This document shows, in pieces, positions 1,685 through 60,420 of a stretch of DNA of 64,000 bases. Origin of the DNA: Octopus sinensis (lineage: Eukaryota); the NCBI RefSeq assembly GCF_006345805.1, contig NC_043006.1, positions 38,936,001-39,000,000 on the forward strand. The letters run 5' to 3'. Each line of letters starts with the position of its first letter. The first letter of the stretch is position 1. A program made the translations under genes and the position numbers. The notes under the pieces were generated by a model that saw only the letters and a program-made list of their open reading frames with translations, was not told the origin of the DNA and ran no database searches.

Positions 1685-2471
1685 TTGTAGATCTATTATG
1701 GCAGTCTTAGTGACACTGAGACCTTTTAAATAGTAGGGTTAGGAGGTCCTCCTAGTTTAATACTACTGTGTGATCCTTGGGTCCCTTCTGCAAGGTTTAC
1801 TCTGTTATAGTTGCAAAACCACCATCATCATCGTCACCACCACCAGCATCATCATCATCAACTCCACCAGCATCATCTAAACCACCAGTACTGGGGTTGA
1901 TCTATTTGACTAAAGATATTTGAAGGCAGTGCCCCAGCATGGCCACAATCTAATGGCTGAATCAATTAAAAGAATAAGAGAACAAAAGAATAAAAGAATG
2001 CAGAGAAATGTGGCAGACAATGCTATTAATGATGGGCACTAATGAAAGCAAAAAGTAAGTTGGGGCCCCAAAAGGCCCTACTTTGAGTGCTAAAGCCATA
2101 ACAAAAATTGGATTTACTGCTCAATGCAGCAAAGGAGGGCTTAAAGCCAGAGCTAAAGCAAGTCCTGAGGCTGATATAACTGATTTGCCCCCTTCTCTCA
2201 AAATTGGTGGCCCTTAACCTTGCAATGGACTGGCATCATGTTTAGGGAGAATGACATGGACCCAGTCATTTGTATGCAATGGAATCTGGGTAACCAGACT
2301 CACATCTTGTGCTCAAGAGGGAAAGGGTTTGATTTAAGGCAAATTTAGTTGTTATTTCTAGCTGGTTTAGCAACCATGTAGAGCAGTGTTTCTCAATGAT
2401 TTTTTACCCAAGGGGCCTTTCTCACTCAAATGGACCCTCATAGCCATTTGATGCTTAAAACATCCTTTTAT

Positions 2472-2637
2472 AGGTGCAGGAGTGGCTGTGTGGTAAGAAG
2501 CTTGCTTCCCAGCCACATCATTCCAGGTTCAGTTCCACAGTGTGGCACCTTAGGCAAGTGTCTCCTACTATAAGCTAGGGCCAATCAAAGCCTAGTGAGT
2601 GGATTTGGTAGATGAAAACTGAAAGACGCTTGTCGTA
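2472..2637 (+). mobile_element. SINE family A, tRNA-derived head fragment
   Basis: ggtgcaggagtggctgtgtggtaag...ggttcagttcc with A/B-box-like motifs; many homologous copies in the window (e.g. 4849, 13370, 18995, 20500, 31020, 47050). Confidence 0.8.
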
Positions 2638-2677
2638 TACATATATATATATATATGTATATTATATATATATATAT

Positions 2678-2719
<42 letters not shown>

Positions 2720-2723
<4 letters not shown>

Positions 2724-2862
2724 TCATCATCATCATTGTCGTCGTTGTTTAACATCTGCTTTCCATGCTGGCATGGGTTTGACAGTTTGACTGAGAACTG
2801 GCAAGCCAGAAGGCTGTACCAGGTTCCAATCTGATCTGGCAAGGTTTCTACAGCTGGATACC
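2720..2862 (-). mobile_element. Family D (GAT)n-tailed retroelement, 3' fragment
   Basis: catcatcat...tttaacatctgctttccatgctggcatggg; homologous to more than 12 other copies in the window. Confidence 0.8.
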
Positions 2863-2883
2863 TTTATATATATTTATATATAT

Positions 2884-3150
2884 AAAACAATTGTAGCATG
2901 GAAGGTGTTTATAAGCCATTTAAGAAACACACAAAAATCGTTAGATTCACTTCAACATTTAAATTTAATTTGTCAAAATATTTTTGTTGCTTTGAAACCG
3001 CGACCTGGTCACCGACAAATTTCCATGGAAGTGACTCAAGCGATTTTTATATGTTTCTTAAATGGCTTATAAACACCTTCCATGCTACAACAGTTTTCGT
3101 TCCAGCACACAATTTTAGATTAGGTCACTTGGTATGCAAGTACATCTTCG

Positions 3151-3152
<2 letters not shown>
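2884..3152. mobile_element. Foldback element in (TA)n, probably PLE-derived
   Basis: Inverted arms ~2884-2953 and ~3029-3096 (tgtagcatggaaggtgtttataagccatttaagaaaca and its reverse complement); the spacer has a degenerate hammerhead-like layout on the minus strand. Confidence 0.6.
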
Positions 3153-3195
<43 letters not shown>

Positions 3196-3229
3196 GATGG
3201 ATGGATGTATATATGGATGGATGGATTTG

Positions 3230-3752
3230 TGCGTCTGTGTTTGTCCCCCAACATCGCTTGACAAGCGATGTTGGTATGTTTATGTCTCTGTAACTTAGCG
3301 GCCCAGCAAAAGGGACTGATAGAATAAGTATTAGGCTTACAAAGAATAAGTCCTGGGATTGATTTGTTCGATTAAAAGGTAGTGTTCCATCATGGCCACA
3401 GTCAAATGACTGAAACAAGTAAAAAAATATCTTTTACAATTAAATATTATTAGGAATTCTCTTTTTTTTCTTTTACTCTTTTACTTGTTTCAGTCATTTG
3501 ACTGTAGCCATGCTAGAGCACTGCCGTTAGTCGAGCAAATCGACCCCAGGACTTATTCTTTGTAAGCCTAGTACTTATTCTATTGGTCTCTTTTACCGAA
3601 CTGCTAAGTTACGGGGACGTAAACACACTAGCACCAGTTGTCAAGCGATGTTGAGGGGACAAACACACACACACACATATATATACATATACATATATAC
3701 GACAGGCTTCTTTCAGTTTCCGTCTACCAAATCCACTCACAAGGCTTTGGTC
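3230..3752. mobile_element. Two family A SINE 3' halves, tail-to-tail (3230-3425 +, 3465-3752 -)
   Basis: Both carry gtaacttagc...gatagaataagtactaggcttacaaagaataagtcctggg...cagtcaaatgactgaaacaagtaaaa, in opposite orientations. Confidence 0.85.
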
Positions 3753-4129
3753 ACTTGTATAAAAAAATTAAAATATTTTGTTTATTGTAAAAATATAACC
3801 AACTTATTGCACATAAATTTCAATGACAAAATCTTATGTGGACCCCTAAGGGCCATTTGGATGTAGAGGCTCCCTTGTTGGCTCATCACTGTTGTTGTTG
3901 TTTTTGTTGTTGTTGCTATTTGTCTTCGCTGTTTTGTATTAATACCAAAATCTCTATTATACACTCAACCATATTACAAATAGAATGACCAGAGCAATAC
4001 ACTAACACACTAGCTACACCACTCCTACCACCACCACCACCACCACCACCGCCAATACCACCACGCTATTTGTAATACTGTTCCTATAAATCACTGCTGA
4101 TTTGACTGAAAAGCTGGATGGAGAGAGAA

Positions 4130-7339: not shown

Positions 7340-7769
7340 TTAAGTATCACCTAGAGTGGACAGCTATGCTACCACCTTTGCAGACAGACCAAAGGGTACT
7401 CTTTATCACATTAATTCTTATATGGAGTTACTCACCCCTTAGATGAATTGGTAGGTAGTGGATCTGTCTTGAGCCCTAAGTCTCATCAACTGAATGGGAT
7501 CACATTTTCCCAGGAAAAGACACTAAGTCATTGCAGAGTTGCTCATTTATATCCTTTATTTTTACTTGTTTCAGTCATTTGACTGAGCTCCACCTTTTGT
7601 CAGACAAATCAACCTCAGGATTTATTCTTTGTAAACCTAGTGCTTATTCTATGGTGCTCTTTTGCCAAACTGCTTAGTTACAAGGACGTAAACACACCGA
7701 CATCAGTTGTCAAGTAATAGTGGGGTGGGGAGAAACACAGACACAAACATACACAGATATATATTTATT

Positions 7770-8151
7770 TTTCTTTTACTCTTTTACTTGTTGCAGTCAT
7801 TTGGCTGTGGCCATGCTGGAGCACTGCCTTTAGTCAAGCAAATCGATCCCAAAACTTATTCTTTGTAAGTCTAGTACTTATTCTATCGGTCTCTTTTGCC
7901 AAACCGCTAAGTTACTGGGATGTAAACACACCTCCAGCGGTTGTCAAGCGATGTTGGGAGGACAAACACAGACGCACAAACATATACATATATACGACAG
8001 GCTTCTTTCAGTTTCCGTCTACGAAATCCACTCAAAAGGCTTTGGTCGACCTGAGTAGAAGACACTTGCCCAAGGTACCATGCAGTGGGACTGAGCCTGG
8101 AACCATGTGGTTTGTAAGCAAGCTACTTACCACACAGCCACTCCTACGCCT
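7770..8151 (-). mobile_element. SINE family A, full-length copy (preceded by another 3' half at 7550-7750)
   Basis: Head ggcgtaggagtggctgtgtgg, internal (TA/TG)n, central domain and ctccagcatggccacagccaaatgactg-AAAAG tail. Confidence 0.85.
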
Positions 8152-8415
8152 ATGTATCTATATGTATATCTTTATATATATTCATGTGTATCTGTATGTT
8201 TATATGTATAAAGACCTTGATAAAGATTTCAGCATTCAAGTTCTGCATGTGTGTGTCTTTTTGTCAGTGTTTGTCCCTGCCATCACTGCTTGACAACTGG
8301 TGTTGGCATGTTTACAACCAGTAACTTAGCAGTTCAGCAAAAGAGACTGATACAATAAGTACTAGGTTTAGAAAGAAAGTCCTGAGGTCAATTTGCTTGA
8401 CTAAAACCCCTCAAA

Positions 8416-13316: not shown

Positions 13317-13359
<43 letters not shown>

Positions 13360-13369
13360 CACACACATA

Positions 13370-13770
13370 AGCATAGAAGTGGGTGTGTGGTAAGTAGCTT
13401 GCTTACCAACCACGTGGTTCCGGGTTCAGTCCCACTATGTGGCATCTTGGGCAAGTGTCTTCTACTATAGCCTTAGGCTGACCAAAGCCTTGTGATTGGA
13501 TTTGGTAGATGGAAACTGAAAGAAGCCCATTGCATGTATGTATATGTGTGTGTGGTGTGTGTGTGTGTCTGTGTGTATGTGTATATGTTTGTGTGTCTGT
13601 CCCTGCAACTACACTTGAGAACTGATGCTGGAGTGTTTACATCCCCATAACTTAGCAGTTCAGCAAAAGACACCAATAGAATAAATACTAGGCTCACAAA
13701 GAATAAGTCCTGGGTTTGATTTGCTCAACTAAAGGCGGTACTCCAGCATGGCCACAGTTAAATAACAAAT
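13370..13770 (+). mobile_element. SINE family A, full-length copy
   Basis: Head, (TG)n spacer, central domain and tail all present. Confidence 0.85.
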
Positions 13771-14060
13771 AAATTTTAAAAATACACACACACACACATA
13801 TCATTATCCATCATCCTCTAATGTCTGTTTTCCCCTCTGGTATGGATTGACTACTAACTACATACACACACAAACACGCACACACAAGACGGATTCTTCC
13901 GTCAAAAAAAGACGTTTGAGCATTCAGCTTTTGCTGTATGACCTGTACAATTGGTTTGTTTATAGTTACCTAATGTTTGTGCCACACATTTGCTTACTCT
14001 CACTTTAACAATCTTTTTCTGTACAATATCTAATTATAAAAACATCACAGGATCTTTCAA

Positions 14061-14478
14061 CCCTTTAGTATTCACTTTGTTCTGTAAAAAATATAGCTTA
14101 TTCATTGCCATTGTTTTGAATTAATCATGCATTATCTTGTACAATTGAGATTTTGATGAAGTGACTGTTAATTTTTAGAATGACATTGTAGGGTAGGTGT
14201 GAGAAGTCAGATCTGGTAAGTTTGAACCTAAAACAGGTAGAATATTTCAGCCAGATATTCTTTTATTCTTTTACTTGTTCCAGTCATTCGACTGTGGCCA
14301 TGCTGGAGCACCGCCTTTAGTCGTAGAAATCAACCCCAGTTCTTATTCTTTGTAAGCCTAGTACTTATTCTATCGGCTTCTTTTGCCAAACCACTAAGTT
14401 ACGGGGATGTAAACACACCAGCATCGGTTGTCAAGTGATGTTGGGGGGGACTAACACAGAACACAAAACATATACACA

Positions 14479-14554
<76 letters not shown>

Positions 14555-14760
14555 TATATAGACATATATACGATGGGCTTCTTTCAGTTTCCGTCAACCA
14601 AATGTACTCAGAAGGCTTTGGTCGGCCAGAGGCTATAGCAGAAGTCACTTGCCCAAGGTGGCATGAGGTGGGACTGAACCCAGAACCATGTGGTTGGGAA
14701 GCATGCTTTTTACCACACAGCCACGCCTACACCTACATGTTTAGTTTAAATGCTAATGGG
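14061..14760. mobile_element. TTAA MITE interrupted by a full family A SINE (about 14257-14733, minus)
   Basis: 14061-14256 aligns with 7121-7316; the remaining end tttaaatgctaatggg|TTAA resumes after the SINE. Confidence 0.85.
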
Positions 14761-28796: not shown

Positions 28797-30473
28797 TTAT
28801 ATACACACATACACACACACATGCATATATATGTATATATGTATAAATAGATAGCTAGATATAAATACACAGATATGAGGATGTTAAACGATGATGATGA
28901 TAATGATATATATGCACATATACACACATATATATGCATATATACACACACACAGACATATATATACGCATACACACACATATATAAATATGCATATATA
29001 TGCACACACACATACACACACACACATATATATATATACACACGTATACACACACACACACACATATATATGTATGTATGTATGTATAGATACATAGCCA
29101 GATATAGATAGATATACAGATATGAGAATTTTTTAAAATGATGATAATGATATATACATATATACATATACATATGTACACATACATACTTATGATTTTA
29201 CTGGGTTTTTTTACCCTATAGTTTTTTATCAGTGTTTCTTTTCTTAAGTATTACAATCTTCTTAACTTCCCTTTCACCTCACACCCATGCCAGCCACATC
29301 CTTCTTCCCTACACACCTCTCTGCAGCATGTAATATGACCACACCTACATACCATCTTCCCTGTCTCTGCCACTATCTCACATCACTATACTCCCATACT
29401 TGCACACCTCCATCTCCACGCACCTACACATACCAACACGCACCTTAGGAAACCATATGCACCACATGCTACCATACACACACACACACACACCTCTCTG
29501 TATCCTCATCTCAATACACAGGTATTTTCCTTTACATGTACACACCAAACCACCTCCACATCCTTTTCTAACTCTCCGCTTAGAACTGCATTTACACCTA
29601 GCACTAACACATCTCTTTTTTTTTTCTGACTACCTTTTCTGAGTCTTCTAGGATGGCTCCGACAATTACTGGTACTGTTACCACCTTTTTCAGCGACCAC
29701 AACTGCTTAACTTCCCACACTAATCTGTCCAAGGTGCAGCACGGTGAGACTGAACCCAAGTAACAGAAAAAAGAGGAAGAATAGTGTCTCAACAGCTAAC
29801 AACTGATGCAGGTGGTTTATTCCATGCTTCAGCAATTCTGAGCATGAAATATAGCTTCCAAGTCATGGTTGCTCTGTGGTTGTTTTGATTTTGTAAGTAT
29901 GTCCCTGAGTGTTAGGCATATGGAATTCCAATAAAAAGATAGGATGGACATAGCTGGAATGTTGGTCAAATGATGAAGTTTTAGCCAAACGGTCACCACT
30001 TTTAGTAGTCTGTGTGTCTGGTAGTTGAGCGTGTGATGCTTGGCTAAGTTAAATCTTTTTCTGGTATGGACAGTTGGCTGGTTGGTTGGTTAAACCAAAA
30101 TGAAACAACATGGAGGTGATACTGGCACTAGTAGTGTGCGCGAGAATGCCTCCAAGAAGGTTACATTGGTTGTTGCGTCTGCTGGCTCATCAAGAGAACT
30201 TACTGAGCAGACAGCATTGATGTGAGTGAAAGAACTACATATCAAGAGAGTTCTAAAGTGAAGGAAGGAAAACTCTAGTGAGAAATGGTGACTGCCGTGC
30301 TTTATGCAAACGCTGAACTGGTAGCAGAAAGAAATGTTCCATTCCAACCAATCACAGAGAATGACACAAAAAGTGCAACCACACAAAGTCAACTGAGTCA
30401 ACTTTGAAATGAAGAAATGTATATTTGCATGTAAGCCAATATCAAACACAGAGCCACTACAAAGTATATTTAA

Positions 30474-30947
30474 CCCTTTCATTATTATATTTATTTTGAG
30501 ATGCTCTGTCTTTCTTTCACTTACTTAAAATATAATAAAGAATTTAGTAAAATAACTTAGTTATCATGAAGCTAGTGCTAGGAACACAAATTGTGGCTAA
30601 GGTTTGGTGGAAGATTTTAATTCAAAACTTATGAAAACAAGACATTTGTACTACAGAGCCAGAAGTGGTTTCAACCAGGTTGGTATTGAAAGGGTTAAGA
30701 ATTGTTTCTTTATTATATATTTTAATCCTTTTGTGACCATATTTTGGTTGAGATGCTCTGTGTTTCTTTCAATTAATTTTAAATATAACAAAGAATTTAG
30801 TAAAATAACTTTGTTATCATTAAGCTAGTATTAGGAACATAAATTATGACTAATGTTTGGTGGAAGATTTTAATTCAAAACTTATGAAAATAAGACTTTT
30901 GTACTACAGAGCCAGAGCTGGTTTCAGCCGGGTTGGTAATGAAAGGG
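30474..30947. mobile_element. Tandem dimer of a ~221-bp TTAA MITE
   Basis: Units 30474-30694 and 30726-30947, each TTAA|(C/T)CCTTT...GAAAGGG|TTAA, separated by gaattgtttctttattatatatt. Confidence 0.85.
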
Positions 30948-32348
30948 TTAACAATGGTTAGACAGAGGGTAAATGAGGACTGGATTGATAAGCAGCTGTC
31001 TGAAAATGCCAAATTATATGGTTGGGTGGTTAAGAAGTTTTGCTTTGTAACCACTTGGTTTTGGGTTCAGTATCACTGTGCTGTACATTGGGCAAGAGCA
31101 TTCTAGTATAACCCTGAGTCAACCAATGCCTTGTGAGTGAATTTAGTAGATTAAAAGTGTGTGGAAGCCCATAATGTATGTGTGTGTGTGTTTCTTTATG
31201 TCTGTGTTTGTCACTTCCCATCAATGGCTTGACGACTGCTGTTGGTTTATTTACATCACCATAACTCATTGATCCAATATAAGACACTGGTAAACTAAAC
31301 TAAAGAAAAGGCAAAAAAAAACATGTTATATTTGTGTGAATGCGTGTGTGCACGTCTGTGCACATGTGTGTGCTCATATGTGTGTGAATGCGTGTCGGCA
31401 TGCATTTATGTGTGTGTACGTGCATGTGTATCTTTCTGTCTGTGTTTGTCTCCCACCACAGCTTGACACACACTGTCAGTGTGTTTATGTCCCCCAAAAC
31501 TTAGCAGTTTGGCAAAATAGACTAACAGAATAAATTCCAGGCTGAAAAAGAAAACAGTTACTGGGGCTGATTAGTTTGACTTAACACCCCCCCCCCCTTC
31601 AAATCGGTGCCCCAGCATTACCACAGTGTAATGCCTTGAAACAAGTAAAATATGAAATATATAACATAAAATTCTATTTTGGTTGTCCAAAACCCTTCAC
31701 AGCATTGCTCCAGCATGGCCAGAGTTCAACAAACCAAACAAGTAAACAGCAAACGAAGGTAAAAGAACTCAGGTGAAGGAAAAAAATTCACTCTATAGTT
31801 GAGTTTTATTCAATAATCCCCAACAGAATCAACTAAAAGCACAACCAAACAACCTAGTAATTTATTCGCGCGTCTATCTTAATGTCACATCAACTGAAAT
31901 GTGGTTGATTATGTATTGGTTAGAGTAATTTGCCAGTTAAGATATAAGGCTCATCTATTTAAAAAGGTAGTCAGAGGAAGACGTATAAAGTTAATTTATT
32001 ATTTCTTTGTTTTCAATTTTGTTTTGTATTCTTTTTGTGAGTGTGTGAGATATTAATCATAGATTAAGGTTTCATCTGTAGAGACAAATGAAATAACTTT
32101 AATCTACTTAACAGGCTCATTAAAAGCTTCTCGCCTCAGGTATTATACGAAATTAGAGAGAGCTCTTTACTCGAAATAGATTAGAAGTGCATGTGTGGGT
32201 TAACAAAGCAGATTAATCAGACCAGTTTCTGAGTTATATATACATGGATATACATATGCCTATATATATATATATATATATACATATAAGCCTATATATA
32301 TATACATATATATACACATATACATATATATACACATACATATATGCC

Positions 32349-35364: not shown

Positions 35365-35511
35365 GAAATTTACATTATTTACATTTGATGGATATTTCTC
35401 CTCGTCTTATTGTTGTTAACACATTTCAGCTGATATACCCCCCAGCCTTCATCAGGTGTCTTGGGGAAAATTCAAACCTAGGTTCTCATTCTTAAGGTAT
35501 TTTTGATGTCA

Positions 35512-35549
<38 letters not shown>

Positions 35550-35623
35550 ATTATTATTATTATTATTCATGTCACTACCTGGAATTAAACTCGCAATCTT
35601 GGGGTTAGTAGCCTGCACAGTTA
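35365..35623 (-). mobile_element. Composite element: partial tRNA-like head, (AAT)n, hammerhead-containing tail
   Basis: Minus strand ...ggCTACTAAcccc aagatt gcgaGTTTAATTCcagg, (AAT)n, then gacac-CTGATGA-aggctgg...tcagct-GAAA-tgtgtt. The tail recurs at 48120-48248. Confidence 0.6.
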
Positions 35624-35651
35624 TATATATATATATATATATACATATATA

Positions 35652-35690
<39 letters not shown>

Positions 35691-35711
35691 TAATTTATAT
35701 ATATATACACA

Positions 35712-46935: not shown

Positions 46936-47049
46936 AAATCATGTCTGTTGTGCATACATTTTACTGAGGTCTTCACTGGAACATTCCATCTGTACTTATT
47001 TTTATTATGAGTGGCTGTGTATGTGTGTATACATATAAGTATGTATTCA

Positions 47050-47565
47050 GGCATGACTGTGTAGTAAAAAGCGTGCTTCTCAAATGCATATTGCCTGGGT
47101 TCAGTCCCACTATGTGGTACCTTGGGCAAGTGTCTTCCACTAAGGCTATGGACCAATCTAAAGCCTTCTGAAAGGATTTGGTAGACAGAAACTAGGCATG
47201 GCTGTGTGGTAAAAAACTTGCTTCCCAACCACATGGTTCTGGGTTCAGTCCTTCTGCGTGCCACCTTGGGCAAGTGTCTTCTACTATAGCCTAGGGCTGA
47301 CCAAAGACTTGTGAGTGAATTTGATAGTTGGAAACTGAAAGAAGCCCATTGTATATTTGTATGTATTTGTGTGTTTTTGTGTGTTTGTCCCTCCACCATC
47401 ACTTGGTGTGTTTACATCATCATAATTTTGTGGTTCAGCAAAAGAGACTGATAGAGTAATACTAGGCTTACAAAGAATAAGTCCAGGGGTAGATTTATTC
47501 AACTAAAAGGTGGTGCCCCAGCATAGCCACAGTGAGAATGACTGAAGCCAGTAAAAGAATAAAAC
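47050..47565 (+). mobile_element. Family A SINE with duplicated head
   Basis: Head at ~47050-47193 repeated at ~47195-47345, followed by one 3' half. Confidence 0.75.
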
Positions 47566-47894
47566 AATGTACGTATGTATGTATATATATATGTGTGTGT
47601 GTGTTTTTCTCCACCACCACTGCAGTAACTTAGCTGTTTGGCAAAAAGAGACTGACAGAACATGCACCAAGATTTTTTTTTAAATGCTAAGTATTGGAAT
47701 TGATTTGTGCAACTAAACCTTTCAAGGTGGTGCCCCAGCATGGCCGCAGTCTGATGACTGAAACAAGTAAAGGATAACTGATAAAATATATCCTCAGCAT
47801 CTTATTTGCTTCAAGGTATTCACTCATCATCATCATCATCATCATCATCATAATTATTTAACGTCTGTTGTCCATACTGGCCTGCGTTCAGATT

Positions 47895-48104: not shown

Positions 48105-48414
48105 TGATGTAAGAACAGGAAGCAGTTCTATATTGAAGAGATGAGGAATTATGTACATTATTTACATTATTTACATTTGACGGATATTTGTCCTCATCTT
48201 GTTTGTTGTTAACACGTTTTGGCTGATATAGTCTCCAGAGCCTTCAGCCCAATGGTTCCCAGCATAGGTCCAAATGACCCTTGGGGTGGGGGTCCATATA
48301 TATATATATATATATACTTTTGCTAAAATTTATGTGCAATAAGATCGGTTTTATCTCTATGATACACAAAATTTTTAATTCAATTCCGAATGATATTTAA
48401 TTACATAAATAACT

Positions 48415-51727: not shown

Positions 51728-51870
51728 CCTATCATGTACACATGTATAGATTTATATATATTATATATATGTGGTTTGCATGTGAGGATATCTCTATACA
51801 TATATCTATAGACACATACGTATACATGTGAGTGTGTATGCACATATATGTATATATATATATATATATA

Positions 51871-52385
51871 TACATATCTACACACATCTATATTTTTATG
51901 GCTTTATGCATGTGTCTATTGGACAATAAAGACACATGAGTATGTAATTAATTAAAATATCTAATAAAATATTGACTTAAAACTATGATACATAAAATAA
52001 AAGGCACTAAAAACAACACAAAAGCATATATATATACATGTGTGTGTGTATATCATCATCATCATGTGTGTATATAAAATAATATAGTAATATATGAAAA
52101 GAGAGAAAAACTCAGAGTGAGACTTGTTATTGGTTAATGTTTTGAAAGTAGCCAGATAATTTTGTGTGGGTTGTATTGAGCTGGGGTCTATTAGTGGTGA
52201 ATGTTTTCGTCAATAAATGTTTCATATACAAAGACAAAGAACACATTTACATAATTTTATGTGTACATATGGTGTGTGCATGTGTTAGCGTGTGTGTGTA
52301 CATACATACATACATATATATACATATATACTATATATATCATGTACATATATATATATATATATATAGATTATATTACATGTAC

Positions 52386-52434
<49 letters not shown>

Positions 52435-52911
52435 CTACACATCATCTATATTTTTATGGCTTTATGCATGTGTCTATTGGACAATAAAGACACATGAGTA
52501 TGTAATTAATTAAAATATCTAATAAAATATTGACTTAAAACTATGATACATAAAATAAAAGGCACTAAAAACAACACAAAAGCATATATATATACATGTG
52601 TGTGGTGTATATCATCATCATCATGTGTGTATATAAAATAATATAGTTATATATATGAAAAGAGAGAAAAACTCAGAGTGAGACTTGTTATTGGTTAATG
52701 TTTTGAAAGTAGCCAGATAATTTGTGTGTGGGTTGTATTGAGCTGGGGTCTATTAGTGGTGAATGTTTTCGTCAATAAATGTTTCATATACAAAGACAAA
52801 GAACACATTACATAATTTTATGTGTACATATGGTTGTGCTGTGTACAAGTGTTAGCGGTGTGTGTATATACATACATACATAATATATACATATATATAT
52901 ATATATATACA

Positions 52912-52942
<31 letters not shown>

Positions 52943-52985
52943 TATACATGTACATATAATATATATATATATATTATTATATATA
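51871..52985. repeat. Tandem direct duplication, period ~557 bp
   Basis: tacatatctacac...catctatatttttatggctttatgcatgtgtctattggac begins at 51871 and again at 52428. Confidence 0.95.
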
Positions 52986-53122
52986 TATTATATATACATA
53001 TAATTTGATATAGTGAGAGAGAGAGAGAGATTAGAAAGAGAGAAAGTGTGATAAAGATCTGCATATATGTAAAACTTTACATATATAAATATATATATAT
53101 ATAATCTATAAATGTATATATG

Positions 53123-55318: not shown

Positions 55319-55494
55319 CATCACTCAGCTGAGTTGGTGTCAGGAAGAGCATCCAACCATAAAAACCATACCAAAATAGATACAGAAGTCTGATGCAGTC
55401 TTCTGCCTGGCTGGCTCCTGTCAAACCATCCAACCCATACCAGCATGGAAGGCAGACATTCAATGATGATGATAAACGATGATTATATATATAT

Positions 55495-55898
55495 ATTCTT
55501 TTATTCTTTTATTTGTTTCGGTCATTTGACTGCGGCCATGCTGGAGCACCCGGGGTTTATTCTTTGTAAAACTAGTACTTATTCTATTGGTCTCCTTTGC
55601 CGAACTGCTAACATGGACGTAAACACACCAGCATTGGTTGTCATGTGATGTTGGGGGGGGGGGGAACAAATACAGACATACAAATACACACACCCGCATA
55701 CATATATATATATATATATTACATACATATATACGACGGGTTTCTTTCAGTTTCTGTCTACCAATTCCACTCACAAGGCTTTGGTCAAGCCGAGGCTATA
55801 GTAGAAGACAGCTGCCCAAGATGCCACGCAGTGGGACTGAACCCGTAACCATGTAGTTGGTAAGCAAGCTACTTACTACACAACCACTCCTGCGCCTA
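55495..55898 (-). mobile_element. SINE family A, full-length copy
   Basis: Head ggcgcaggagtggttgtgtag through to the (AAAAG/AATA) tail. Confidence 0.85.
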
Positions 55899-56356
55899 TT
55901 ATATATTATATATATGCATAGACATAGACAAGCACATACATATAAAGATATCATTTTCTTCACTCCTATGAAATAAACACGGAATACAATTTTACAATTG
56001 AATTCTAATTACAGATATAATCAAATAACCTCGTATGAAATATATTCCTCTTTTAAAAGATGCAAACTGAATGGACTAATTAAATTCACACTTATAGCAA
56101 AGAATGGATTCACAGCCAACTTAACATCAGTAGAACAGAGTTCATTAATAGCGATGGTAGTTGCAAAGTATTGGATTGTGTTGGAAGAAGCAAGAGGAAT
56201 ATGATGAACCAAGAGTATATTTCCCTTGTCTTAATAGATGCCTATCAATAGCAGATACATGCTATACAATGGAAGTGACCTGGAACCGAGAGAAAATTGC
56301 TTGAACAATAAAAGTGGATTAGTATATGTATGGGTATATACATACACATACACACA

Positions 56357-58025: not shown

Positions 58026-58261
58026 GCAAGTGTATGTATCTGTAAAACTGTTTCATACACTGAATTATCTAGCCAAACAAAGTTTCCATATGTTCCATCA
58101 AGAGAGCAACAAATTCAAGCATGCCTGAGTATTCCTCAGGCAATTGTACTTTTCACATAGTCTGCAGGCATAATATGTGTAATACTGAATGGGATTAGAA
58201 TGGCTCATGGAATTACAGTGAGTAACTTATTCACAATTCTCAATATACAAATACATGTATC

Positions 58262-58860
58262 ATATAGTGAGAATTTACAAAAAGACAAAAGATGAAGTTG
58301 GATATGTAAACAACAAACAGATGTATTAGTTTAATGCTCGGGAAGTGAGAAAGCTTTTCATGTTTCGAGCCTATGCTCTTCTGCAGAAAGAAACACAGAA
58401 ATAAACAGGGAGAGAAAATAGAAAAAGGTTTAGTGGCTAGCGATCTATCATGGTGAATCTCTGTAATATATACATTATATATCGTGAGAATTTACAAAAA
58501 TAAAAGACAAAGATGGGTGTGTAAACAACAAACAGATGTATTAGTTTAATGCTTGGGAAGTGAGAAAGTCTTTTACATTTCGAGCCTGCACTCTTCAGCA
58601 GAAAGGAACACAGAAATAAAAAGGGAGAGGAAAAAGAAAAAGAATTAGTGGCTAGGGATCTATCATGGTGAACAAGAGCAGGTTGAGAGAAATGACAATA
58701 GGAAAGAGCACTAAGTACAAAAAGTTTAGAAAAGTTCAAAAGGTTCAAACGTCATGGTGTATTGGAGTGATTTCTCATCAAAGAAAGAGTCCAGTGTAAT
58801 ACATGGGTAGGAGAGATGCAGCCGAAGTGTAGGAGTCCAGGTTATGAGCCATGTCTCACT
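58262..58860 (-). mobile_element. PLE-like element with two tandem ~215-bp terminal repeats, each with a minimal hammerhead-like motif
   Basis: Repeats ~58267-58457 and ~58484-58672; motifs at 58354-58390 and 58570-58605 (cttt-CTGCxGA-a-gag...ctc-GAAA...aaag). 58720-58840 is homologous to 16815-16935 in reverse orientation. Confidence 0.65.
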
Positions 58861-59712
58861 AATCACAGGTTTGCCTGTGATAACACACGTTGGCAATCAT
58901 TTGAAAACTCTGGTTATACTACAAAAACATGACCCAGGGACCACCGGCAGTTCTCAGCTGCTACCTAATATTTTCTGACTGTCACCAGACCATGCAGTGA
59001 GGCTGTATGGTTTGTTTTATAGATTTATATACTCTAACCCTTCAACATGGGACCAGTAAACAGAAAAAATACGAAGGTGATGGTACTACACAAAAAGTAC
59101 CTTTTTTTGCATCACATAAAAAGCACCCAGTTCACTCTGTAAAGGGGGTGGCATTTGGAGGCACATCCTGTGATAGAAAACATGTCAAAACAGACAGTTG
59201 GGGCCTGGTGCAGCTCTCCAGCTTACCACCTCCTGTCAAACTATTCAACCCATACCAGCATGGAAAACGGACATTTGATGATGATGATGACGATGATATG
59301 CCTGATCCCAAAACATGATGCAAACAAATGTATTTTTCTACAGGGAAAGATAGAGATGATTAAGAAAATACACGAAGGTGGAAGCTTTGCTGCTGTAGAC
59401 TGTTAAGTTTAATGTCAATGAATCTTAAGCATTCTTTCTGTTTACTAACTGCGCAGAGACGACCCATTCATCACTGGGATTTTTTTTGCAACAAAACTTC
59501 TCTGATAAACGAAGATGTATTAATATTTGTATATCTTCCGTGTTTTGAATTTATATCCTTGCATGGATATTGGACTACATTATCTTAGCTCTGCTCCAGA
59601 TTATTGTAGCTCAGTGAAGGATAAGCATAGAGATGATTTATTTATCATTCTGCTTTTTGGAACCAAACTTCCTTGATAAATGAAGATGTATTAATATTCA
59701 ATTCTACTTTAA

Positions 59713-60197
59713 ACCTTTTGATAGCAACTTGGCTGAAACTAGTTCTGACACTGTAGTACAAAAACGTTTTGTTTTAATAAGTTTTGAATTAAAATCTTCC
59801 ACCAAACCGTAATCACAATTTATGTTCTTAACACTAGCTGAATGATAACTAAGTTATTTTACTAAATTCTTCATTGTATTTAAGATTGATTGAAAGAAAC
59901 ACAGAGCATCTCAACAGAAATATGATCGTAAAAGAGTTAAAATATATAATAAAGAAATAATTCTTTACTCTCTTCATACCAGCCCGGCAGAAACCGCTTC
60001 TGGTTCTGCAGTACAAATGTCTTGTTTTCTTGTTTTCATAAGTTCTGAATTAAAATCTTCCAACAAACCTTAGTCACAATTTATGTACTTAACACTAGTT
60101 TCATGATAACTAAGTTAATTTACTAAATTCTTTGTTATATTTAAAATCAATTGAAAGAAACACAAAACATCTCAACAGAAATATGGTAACGAAAGGT
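59713..60197. mobile_element. Second tandem dimer of the ~221-bp TTAA MITE, opposite orientation
   Basis: Same two units and a near-identical spacer (aatatataataaagaaataattc) to 30474-30947. Confidence 0.85.
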
Positions 60198-60420
60198 TTA
60201 AGACAGCGAGCTGGCAGAATTGTTAGCACACTGGACGAAATACTAAGTGGCATTTCACGTGTCTTTACATTCTGAGTTCAAGTTCCACTGAGGTTGACTT
60301 TGCCTTTTGTCCTTTCAGGGTCGATAGAATAAAAACCAATTGAATACGGGGGTTCTCTCCCAAAATTTCTTGCCTTCTAACACAATTTGAAATCAATGTT
60401 TTGATCTACTCTAGATTAAT

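Follow-up and report, generated by a model that had tools for sequence, protein, structure and literature searches.

PLE (Penelope-type) insertions have been described as having an inverted, truncated arm, a one-sided tail of 30-40 nt and target repeats of 8-10 nt (available text of PMC8557442 and PMC3846280). The protein of the Anolis PLE nicks and extends both strands, and RT (reverse transcriptase) starts on its RNA at two internal sites that bound the tail, hammerhead cleavage not being needed (available text of PMC11167929). The accessible part of PMC4209133 describes a minimal type I hammerhead of metazoan PLEs with palindromic positions 15.2-16.2. A zinc-finger-like linker between RT and endonuclease is present in Neptune and Nematis, and its absence serves as the criterion for the Penelope/Poseidon type (PMC8557442, same portion). 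As for promoters, the accessible descriptions of PAc of Anolis and of Adineta Pen2/Pen2a give TATA/Inr-like motifs and no tRNA head (PMC11167929, PMC3846280). As the available part of PMC10886601 puts the usual division, Pol II serves the autonomous retrotransposons and Pol III the SINEs; the autonomous partners of the TRIMp3 elements were argued there to need Pol II. In a retrotransposon with enzymes of its own, a Pol III promoter would be an uncommon feature.

We observed that the window (the whole 64,000-nt stretch of Octopus sinensis DNA that was analysed) carries, at 35368-35623 on the minus strand, what remains of an autonomous retrotransposon of the Penelope/Poseidon type: a short, dead copy of its terminal module. 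The original prediction had described a tRNA-like head joined to a hammerhead tail, as a candidate SINE mobilised by Penelope. The Penelope terminal repeat with its minimal hammerhead and the use of Penelope enzymes have stood, while the separate SINE borrowing a partner's tail has not. The description was also incomplete, as it included neither the two-armed inverted form of insertion nor the one-sided tail of 30-40 nt. Our main reading, to which we give a probability of roughly 0.7, is that the terminal module begins with a tRNA-derived head, likely an internal Pol III promoter that would set the 5' end of the RNA.

All the predicted parts of the locus (tRNA-like 3' half, CTACTAA loop, B-box-like sequence, (AAT)n, CTGATGA and the stems) were found as described, by sequence inspection and alignment. 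The head remnant (35566..35623, minus strand) is the 3' two thirds, positions 25-82, of the family head, as aligned to the family majority. It contains a decayed B box, GTTTAATTC as against GTTCGATTC in the family (35582..35590, minus strand, same alignment), and, by its position, the anticodon-loop-like 7-mer CTACTAA (35605..35611, minus strand). The A-box half is gone, as had been predicted: the alignment begins at family position 25, and the cut-off head abuts a (TA)n microsatellite (35622..35707, unstranded). A repeat scan gave the (AAT)n linker, which joins head to ORF start here and in other family copies, at 35514..35567 (minus strand). The Penelope terminal repeat (35368..35509, minus strand) also forms the first codons of the ORF and is present in the short-end form, which is without the 30-40 nt tail. 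The likely start codon (35487..35489, minus strand) is in frame with the ORF in the family majority; downstream of it the frame of this copy is shifted. The minimal type I hammerhead, placed by alignment to the majority at 35418..35460 (minus strand), has CTGATGA at 35449-35455, the stem II arms at 35442-35447 and 35428-35433, and GAAATGTGTT at 35418-35427, all on the minus strand. Stems I and II form in the MFE fold of this copy, as had been described. The short 3' end falls inside 9-nt AT-rich repeats (35368..35383, minus strand), which the bimodal ends of the family mark as a likely second priming site. When the flanks were searched, no inverted arm or target-site repeat was found for this copy.

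The predicted recurrence of the tail at 48120-48248 was confirmed as a second, partial copy (48123..48246, minus strand), with the 3' half of the hammerhead and a full tail ending TAGAACTG at 48123. The two copies are 85% alike over 87 nt (E 7e-22). In both, the GTT cleavage triplet has been lost through an identical 3-nt deletion (35418-35427 and 48211-48220), and from the core of the second the CTGA half is missing as well; therefore both are inactive. This agrees with the earlier view that neither has a proper stem III/UH and that both are probably inactive, as the GAAA-stem III-UH segment is intact in neither.

The window is dominated by at least three further families of short, high-copy repeats (2468-3753, 7545-8405, 13321-14735, 47028-47791 and 55484-55950), which are often inverted or composite and next to (TA)n and (CAT)n. 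A direct duplication of ~700 bp with 90% identity lies at 51737-53001 (51737-52434 against 52307-53001). A two-unit tandem repeat of ~245 bp occurs twice, in opposite orientation (30465-30959 and 59709-60201), and a 215-bp two-copy tandem lies at 58251-58672.

The tail had been taken as a repeat family, and this proved correct, with roughly 40,000 copies in the genome. A tail search of the 2.72-Gb genome gave 3,859 first-look candidates, and forty fixed 10-kb regions (400 kb) held 6 elements, 5 of them with head and tail; extrapolation from these 6 gives ~41,000 copies (95% range 15,000-89,000). Tails diverge from the majority by a median of 6%, and near-identical sequence was present in sequencing runs of six organisms.

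The consensus that the original prediction had proposed to check carries both boxes. The A box of the family majority head (TGGCGTAGTGG) and its B box are intact and correctly spaced, which tells against a rival reading: a tRNA or SINE fragment would have come into the terminal repeat as a passenger, or would serve as a Pol II promoter element, and the family would be transcribed by Pol II like other PLEs. We consider Pol II transcription of this kind unlikely. Against the genome tRNAs the best local score of the head was 61, with tRNA-Arg(TCT), and the shuffled maximum was 47; in this partial set of genome tRNAs, those for Arg, Ala, Cys, Lys and Thr scored 61-53. ARAGORN called no tRNA in the window or in 18 family loci, and Rfam gave no tRNA or hammerhead match on the family locus L059, nor among the 150 of 244 window matches listed; the failure of the head in both programs favours the Pol II reading.

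If a tRNA-SINE and a hammerhead repeat had come to be nested by chance at (AAT)n, the two parts would rarely be adjacent. Instead, a same-strand tail lay within 250 bp in 21/29 head-selected loci and within 1.5 kb in 25/29, and head and tail were together in 5/6 random elements. These counts refute chance nesting, which we hold to be extremely improbable even though other repeats do insert in this (AAT)n linker (L013, L050, L058). Such insertions into the linker are in fact repeated (also L018, L036 and others); one of the inserted repeats ends CTCTCTCACTC(AAT)n and another starts AAATGCCCTGATGCAG, and the insertion of such repeats may be directed to AAT microsatellites.

In the majority tail, CTGATGA is accompanied by a 5-bp stem II and by GAAACGTT with GTGTT after it; this is the core that the proposed check was to look for, with stems I and II and a palindromic ACGT. 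As judged from these motifs it fits the minimal type I hammerhead of PLEs, as defined in the accessible part of PMC4209133. A fully intact core is kept in 13/87 tails, a sample biased towards the 3-nt deletion by the query used; the deletion occurs in 4/33 head-selected tails and in ~10% of RNA reads. We found neither a pile of read ends at the cleavage site in RNA-seq nor a pile of arm starts there that would indicate cleavage in vivo, and the MFE dimer fold of the family sequence did not give the hammerhead. The hammerhead is probably uncut in the copied RNA, since copies retain both sides of the cleavage site. Loss of the cleavage triplet is what an RT jump across the cut RNA with a 2-nt match would produce. 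Short repeats near the cleavage site lose bases about equally often, and slippage may explain the 3-nt deletion, which was therefore not taken as a sign of cleavage. Other hammerhead-like cores (CTGANGA...GAAA with stem II), unrelated to this tail, lie near different PLE fragments (L069, L177, L179).

The Penelope origin and the anatomy of the element are virtually certain. Its order is head, (AAT)n, ORF start with the in-frame hammerhead, RT, putative endonuclease, stop, ~25 nt, and then the head again. In L186 and in six further loci, the head is preceded by the end of an RT-endonuclease ORF, with thumb and endonuclease motifs in the L186 translation. When loci were chosen on the endonuclease end, 30/30 ran on into the head, 26 of them with the tail within 300 bp. 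At the other end, the tail continues into the N-terminus of the ORF in five loci (L241, L246, L269, L279, L284); tail and ORF share the frame, in which an ATG precedes the hammerhead core by 33 nt. The autonomous PLE ending in the same tail, for which a search had been proposed, is thus the element itself, as the tail joins the start of its own RT-endonuclease ORF. A pseudo-LTR overlaps the ORF start, in both direct and inverted orientation.

The single ORF has PLE-type RT motifs (DKG, YVDD) and an RVT_1 match of 40 bits on L260. It aligns with Neptune-type ORFs at about 30%, and a protein search gave 7 relatives at 52-68% identity. GIY-YIG-like motifs could be read by eye in the C-terminal translation, while Pfam PF01541 gave no match on the piece from L247. 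The translation of the RT-endonuclease linker has no zinc-finger-like linker, and by this criterion the translated element is of the Penelope/Poseidon type. None of the copies retrieved has an intact ORF, and all 30 loci of the protein search carry stops; the ORF majority was built by pile-up and contains frameshift artefacts. Most of the 30 best loci and 20 further regions that a search for a partner through Pfam GIY-YIG yielded were Neptune/Nematis-like PLEs, without a match to the tail.

Many of these GIY-YIG matches, with L161 (G000:C6:12730000-12739000), belong to a young and abundant Neptune-like PLE family, in which several loci with identical scores have an intact ORF of 781 aa; another family has a 775-aa frame (L162). 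One near-full-length copy of the octopus element is present four times together with its flanks (L241, L246, L302, L303), on chromosome C1 at 206.75 Mb and on the small contigs C9724, C9459 and C8464, by segmental duplication or assembly redundancy.

The SINEs OK, OR1 and OR2 are known from octopus. In the present family, the head of the stub is common to the autonomous element and is not the loan of a SINE partner: since the head is continuous with the ORF in 30/30 loci, it does not lie outside the partner element as a SINE2 head would. This overturns the earlier idea of an independent SINE with a borrowed tail, although the view that head and tail belong together was right; ORF-start copies carry both directly upstream of the ORF. 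A related possibility is that the head-plus-tail unit is a separate non-autonomous SINE with source copies of its own, moved in trans by the Penelope protein. At the head boundary there are about four short units for every ORF-bearing arm, 5/6 elements of the random sample were short head-plus-tail units, and a stub holds the promoter and the recognition site, so some stubs could be sources. However, the head is contiguous with the ORF at both its end and its start, no SINE-specific sequence was seen outside the coding element, and internal RT initiation on the element's own RNA would account for the stubs without separate sources. We regard such a SINE as quite improbable and prefer a single element as the origin of the stubs.

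The ends of the tails were bimodal: 49 had the fixed long end, 51 a variable short end 25-45 nt earlier, and 4 lay between. Among 35 head-to-head copies, 33 had one long and one short end and none had two long ends. Flanking repeats of at least 10 nt, one mismatch allowed, were present in 20/35 of these two-armed copies, as compared to 15/1190 mismatched (shuffled) pairs; the target-site repeats measured 10-15 nt. In an independent set of 29 loci chosen on the long end, 13 had an inverted arm (11 short, 2 long), with repeats in 10/13 as against 6/156 control pairs, while 16/29 were without an inverted arm by the filter used. Three apparent single-arm copies contained a stub of 9-13 nt of the inverted long end and a repeat of 13-15 nt. 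The palindrome centres varied, mostly with microhomology of 2-7 nt, and either arm may be the more truncated. In a comparison meant to tell one RNA template per insertion from two, arms of one insertion share private changes at 0.12, in comparison to 0.06 between elements; divergence was uncorrelated.

By analogy, this form of insertion matches the two-strand nicking and two internal RT starts of the Anolis element. Two separate priming events per insertion are our preferred reading; the alternative is a self-priming fold-back, which is discussed in the accessible part of PMC3846280. A palindromic DNA transposon (a MITE of the Tc1/mariner type, or a foldback element) was also considered, from the CAGT... 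end often flanked by TA. Many copies are indeed long inverted repeats, and TA often follows the long end. This candidate was rejected and has a negligible probability, as the ends are asymmetric (0/35 with two intact ends), the repeats are of 10-15 nt and not TA, and the RT ORF is contiguous.

The head very likely marks an RNA 5' end. Among arms chosen independently of the head, 59 reach it, and the stops per zone, moving 5'-ward, were 3/59, 8/56, 22/48 and then 21/26 at positions -11 to +8, where arm L005 (position -11, palindrome centre) was assigned to the edge zone by hand; arms of one insertion are not independent in these counts, and p-values drawn from them are overstated. Five arms at four loci pass the 5' edge of the head and run from 66 to at least 940 nt into the ORF, none of the five stopping in the next 54 nt. 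Some of the stops inside the head could stem from later deletions at the palindrome centre. ORF-start loci are mostly cut within the tail; where the head stands immediately before them (five loci), the start lies at head positions 4-9 in four, and the ORF-start copy L299 is a tandem that reaches upstream past the head.

Many arms start 3-8 nt upstream of the tRNA +1, i.e. ~12 nt before the A box, and in L124 two complete heads are joined bluntly. Since these starts lie upstream of the tRNA +1 and the heads of L124 are complete, they point to transcription starting ~12 nt before the A box and not to an RNase P cut. This counts against the Pol II reading, in which the pile-up of 5' ends is put down to a start of Pol II, to processing of the RNA or to a place where RT stops: an RNase P site is not where the ends fall.

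In RNA reads of a related organism, the depth was flat over 200 nt of the ORF end and then rose at the head by 2.9-fold (X21) and 3.5-fold (X22), and loose read ends piled up at the head. These reads probably reflect genomic copies inside host transcripts. The ordinary RNA-seq runs showed no pile of molecule starts or ends. In the tail L184:1415-1590, A>G and T>C changes reached 10-30% in three RNA runs (X21-X23) and stayed below 1% in the contig run; at one site, T>C was 25-30% in the RNA runs and 0.2% in the contig run. Fold-back copies in host transcripts appear to be substrates of A-to-I editing; the organisms differ between the runs, however, and rare variants are lost in contigs.

Transcription by Pol III ends at runs of at least four T. 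The 2,643-nt sense strand of the majority contains no TTTT run, nor do the head and the tail; in two Neptune-type ORFs comparable in length and base composition there are 9 and 10. Decayed copies have 0.29-0.47 TTTT per kb, at scattered positions, as against 3.4 per kb in Neptune copies. The probability of finding no TTTT was 0.006 with bases shuffled, 0.02 with the codon use of Neptune, 0.05 with that of the element itself and 0.075 with dinucleotides shuffled; the protein is poor in Phe (19 against 37 of 781 residues). A sibling Poseidon family that could serve as a control was not found, 30/30 top matches being the same family. The absence of TTTT across 2.6 kb tells against Pol II and supports the Pol III model, supporting and not deciding it, as the deficit is modest and is borderline under two of the four nulls, a point in favour of Pol II.

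Taken as motifs and boundaries in genomic copies, these observations suggest that Pol III probably makes the head-initiated RNA. That Pol III also makes the coding RNA is a more tentative proposal. Uncapped Pol III RNA is hard to translate and a coding RNA normally needs a cap, which favours Pol II. The promoter motifs described for PLEs are also of the Pol II-like TATA/Inr type (available text of PMC3846280), which weighs against Pol III and on the side of Pol II. In its fullest form, which we put forward as possible and somewhat short of probable, the Pol III model would have the whole RNA of ~2.7 kb made from a captured tRNA promoter, with TTTT purged and one unit serving master and stubs alike.

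Under this model, RNA polymerase III would start the element's RNA at the tRNA-derived head, and the element's protein would nick both target strands ~10-15 nt apart. Reverse transcription would begin inside the RNA, at a fixed site to give the long end and at the AT-rich repeat 30-40 nt upstream to give the short end. Where priming takes place at the site near the 5' end of the RNA, each cDNA would stop at the head start, and two short cDNAs would join by microhomology into SINE-like stubs. For the ORF-bearing copies, the source would be longer RNAs or template jumps; the internally deleted ORF-start copies L289, L297, L309 and L313 fit template jumps.

If this is true, the division between Pol II and Pol III is broken by an element that codes for protein and has both a tRNA promoter and a strand free of terminators, and the question arises of how an uncapped RNA gets translated. 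The LINE-like master and its SINE-like offspring would then be one transcription unit, with tens of thousands of fold-back stubs. In addition, the family offers an extensive natural record of how Penelope elements integrate, a mechanism that is poorly understood: thousands of short two-armed copies show both priming sites, the spacing of the nicks and the head-to-head joint, and they match the in-vitro results for Anolis. Automated annotation would probably class the stubs as unclassified SINEs.

In the accessible article literature, no tRNA-headed or Pol III-driven PLE was found. The accessible part of a 2026 octopus repeat annotation mentions neither hammerheads nor Pol III, and the available portions of PMC5625713, PMC6962438 and PMC5786205 contain nothing specific to the octopus family. 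This family may be present in the repeat library of PMC13282606 and in files S1-S2 of PMC8557442.

The comparison with known systems, for which the available portions of the cited papers were used, places the element as follows. Like tRNA-derived SINEs (SINE2; PMC5786205, PMC10886601), the stubs have a tRNA head with A and B boxes, are short and of high copy number and have target repeats; unlike them, they have a head common to the autonomous element, a 3' part that is the start of a PLE ORF, and a two-armed insertion. The schistosome repeats Sm-alpha/Sj-alpha, known second-hand through PMC6765202, are likewise dispersed and have a hammerhead after a promoter of the Pol III type. They are, however, non-coding tandem units excised by canonical hammerheads, whereas the octopus module lies within a coding element, has a minimal hammerhead and keeps both sides of the cleavage site. 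The TRIMp3 elements Cassandra, Helenus and Ajax (PMC10886601) likewise have a small-RNA Pol III promoter in a terminal repeat, regenerated in each copy, but are non-autonomous LTR elements of 0.3-1.3 kb, while the octopus element is autonomous and Penelope-type. Animal non-LTR retrozymes (PMC7761336, bioRxiv 10.64898/2026.07.22.740005) have in common with it a type I hammerhead and a link to PLEs. They form head-to-tail tandem arrays and circular RNAs, in contrast to the head-to-head pairs with a tRNA head in octopus; arrays of the retrozyme type are not the pattern here, as copies are single or head-to-head and direct repeats are rare (L048, L194).

The most extensive likeness is to the Penelope/Poseidon PLEs PAc of Anolis (PMC11167929) and Pen2/Pen2a of Adineta (PMC3846280). 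The octopus element has, like these, a single ORF for RT and a putative C-terminal endonuclease, a hammerhead over the ORF start, an inverted 5'-truncated arm, a tail of 30-40 nt at one end, target repeats of about 10 nt and AT-rich targets. It differs from their available descriptions in its A/B-box tRNA head, its TTTT-free strand and the sharp pile-up of head starts. What is new is the tRNA-derived head; the insertion pattern is the known Penelope form.
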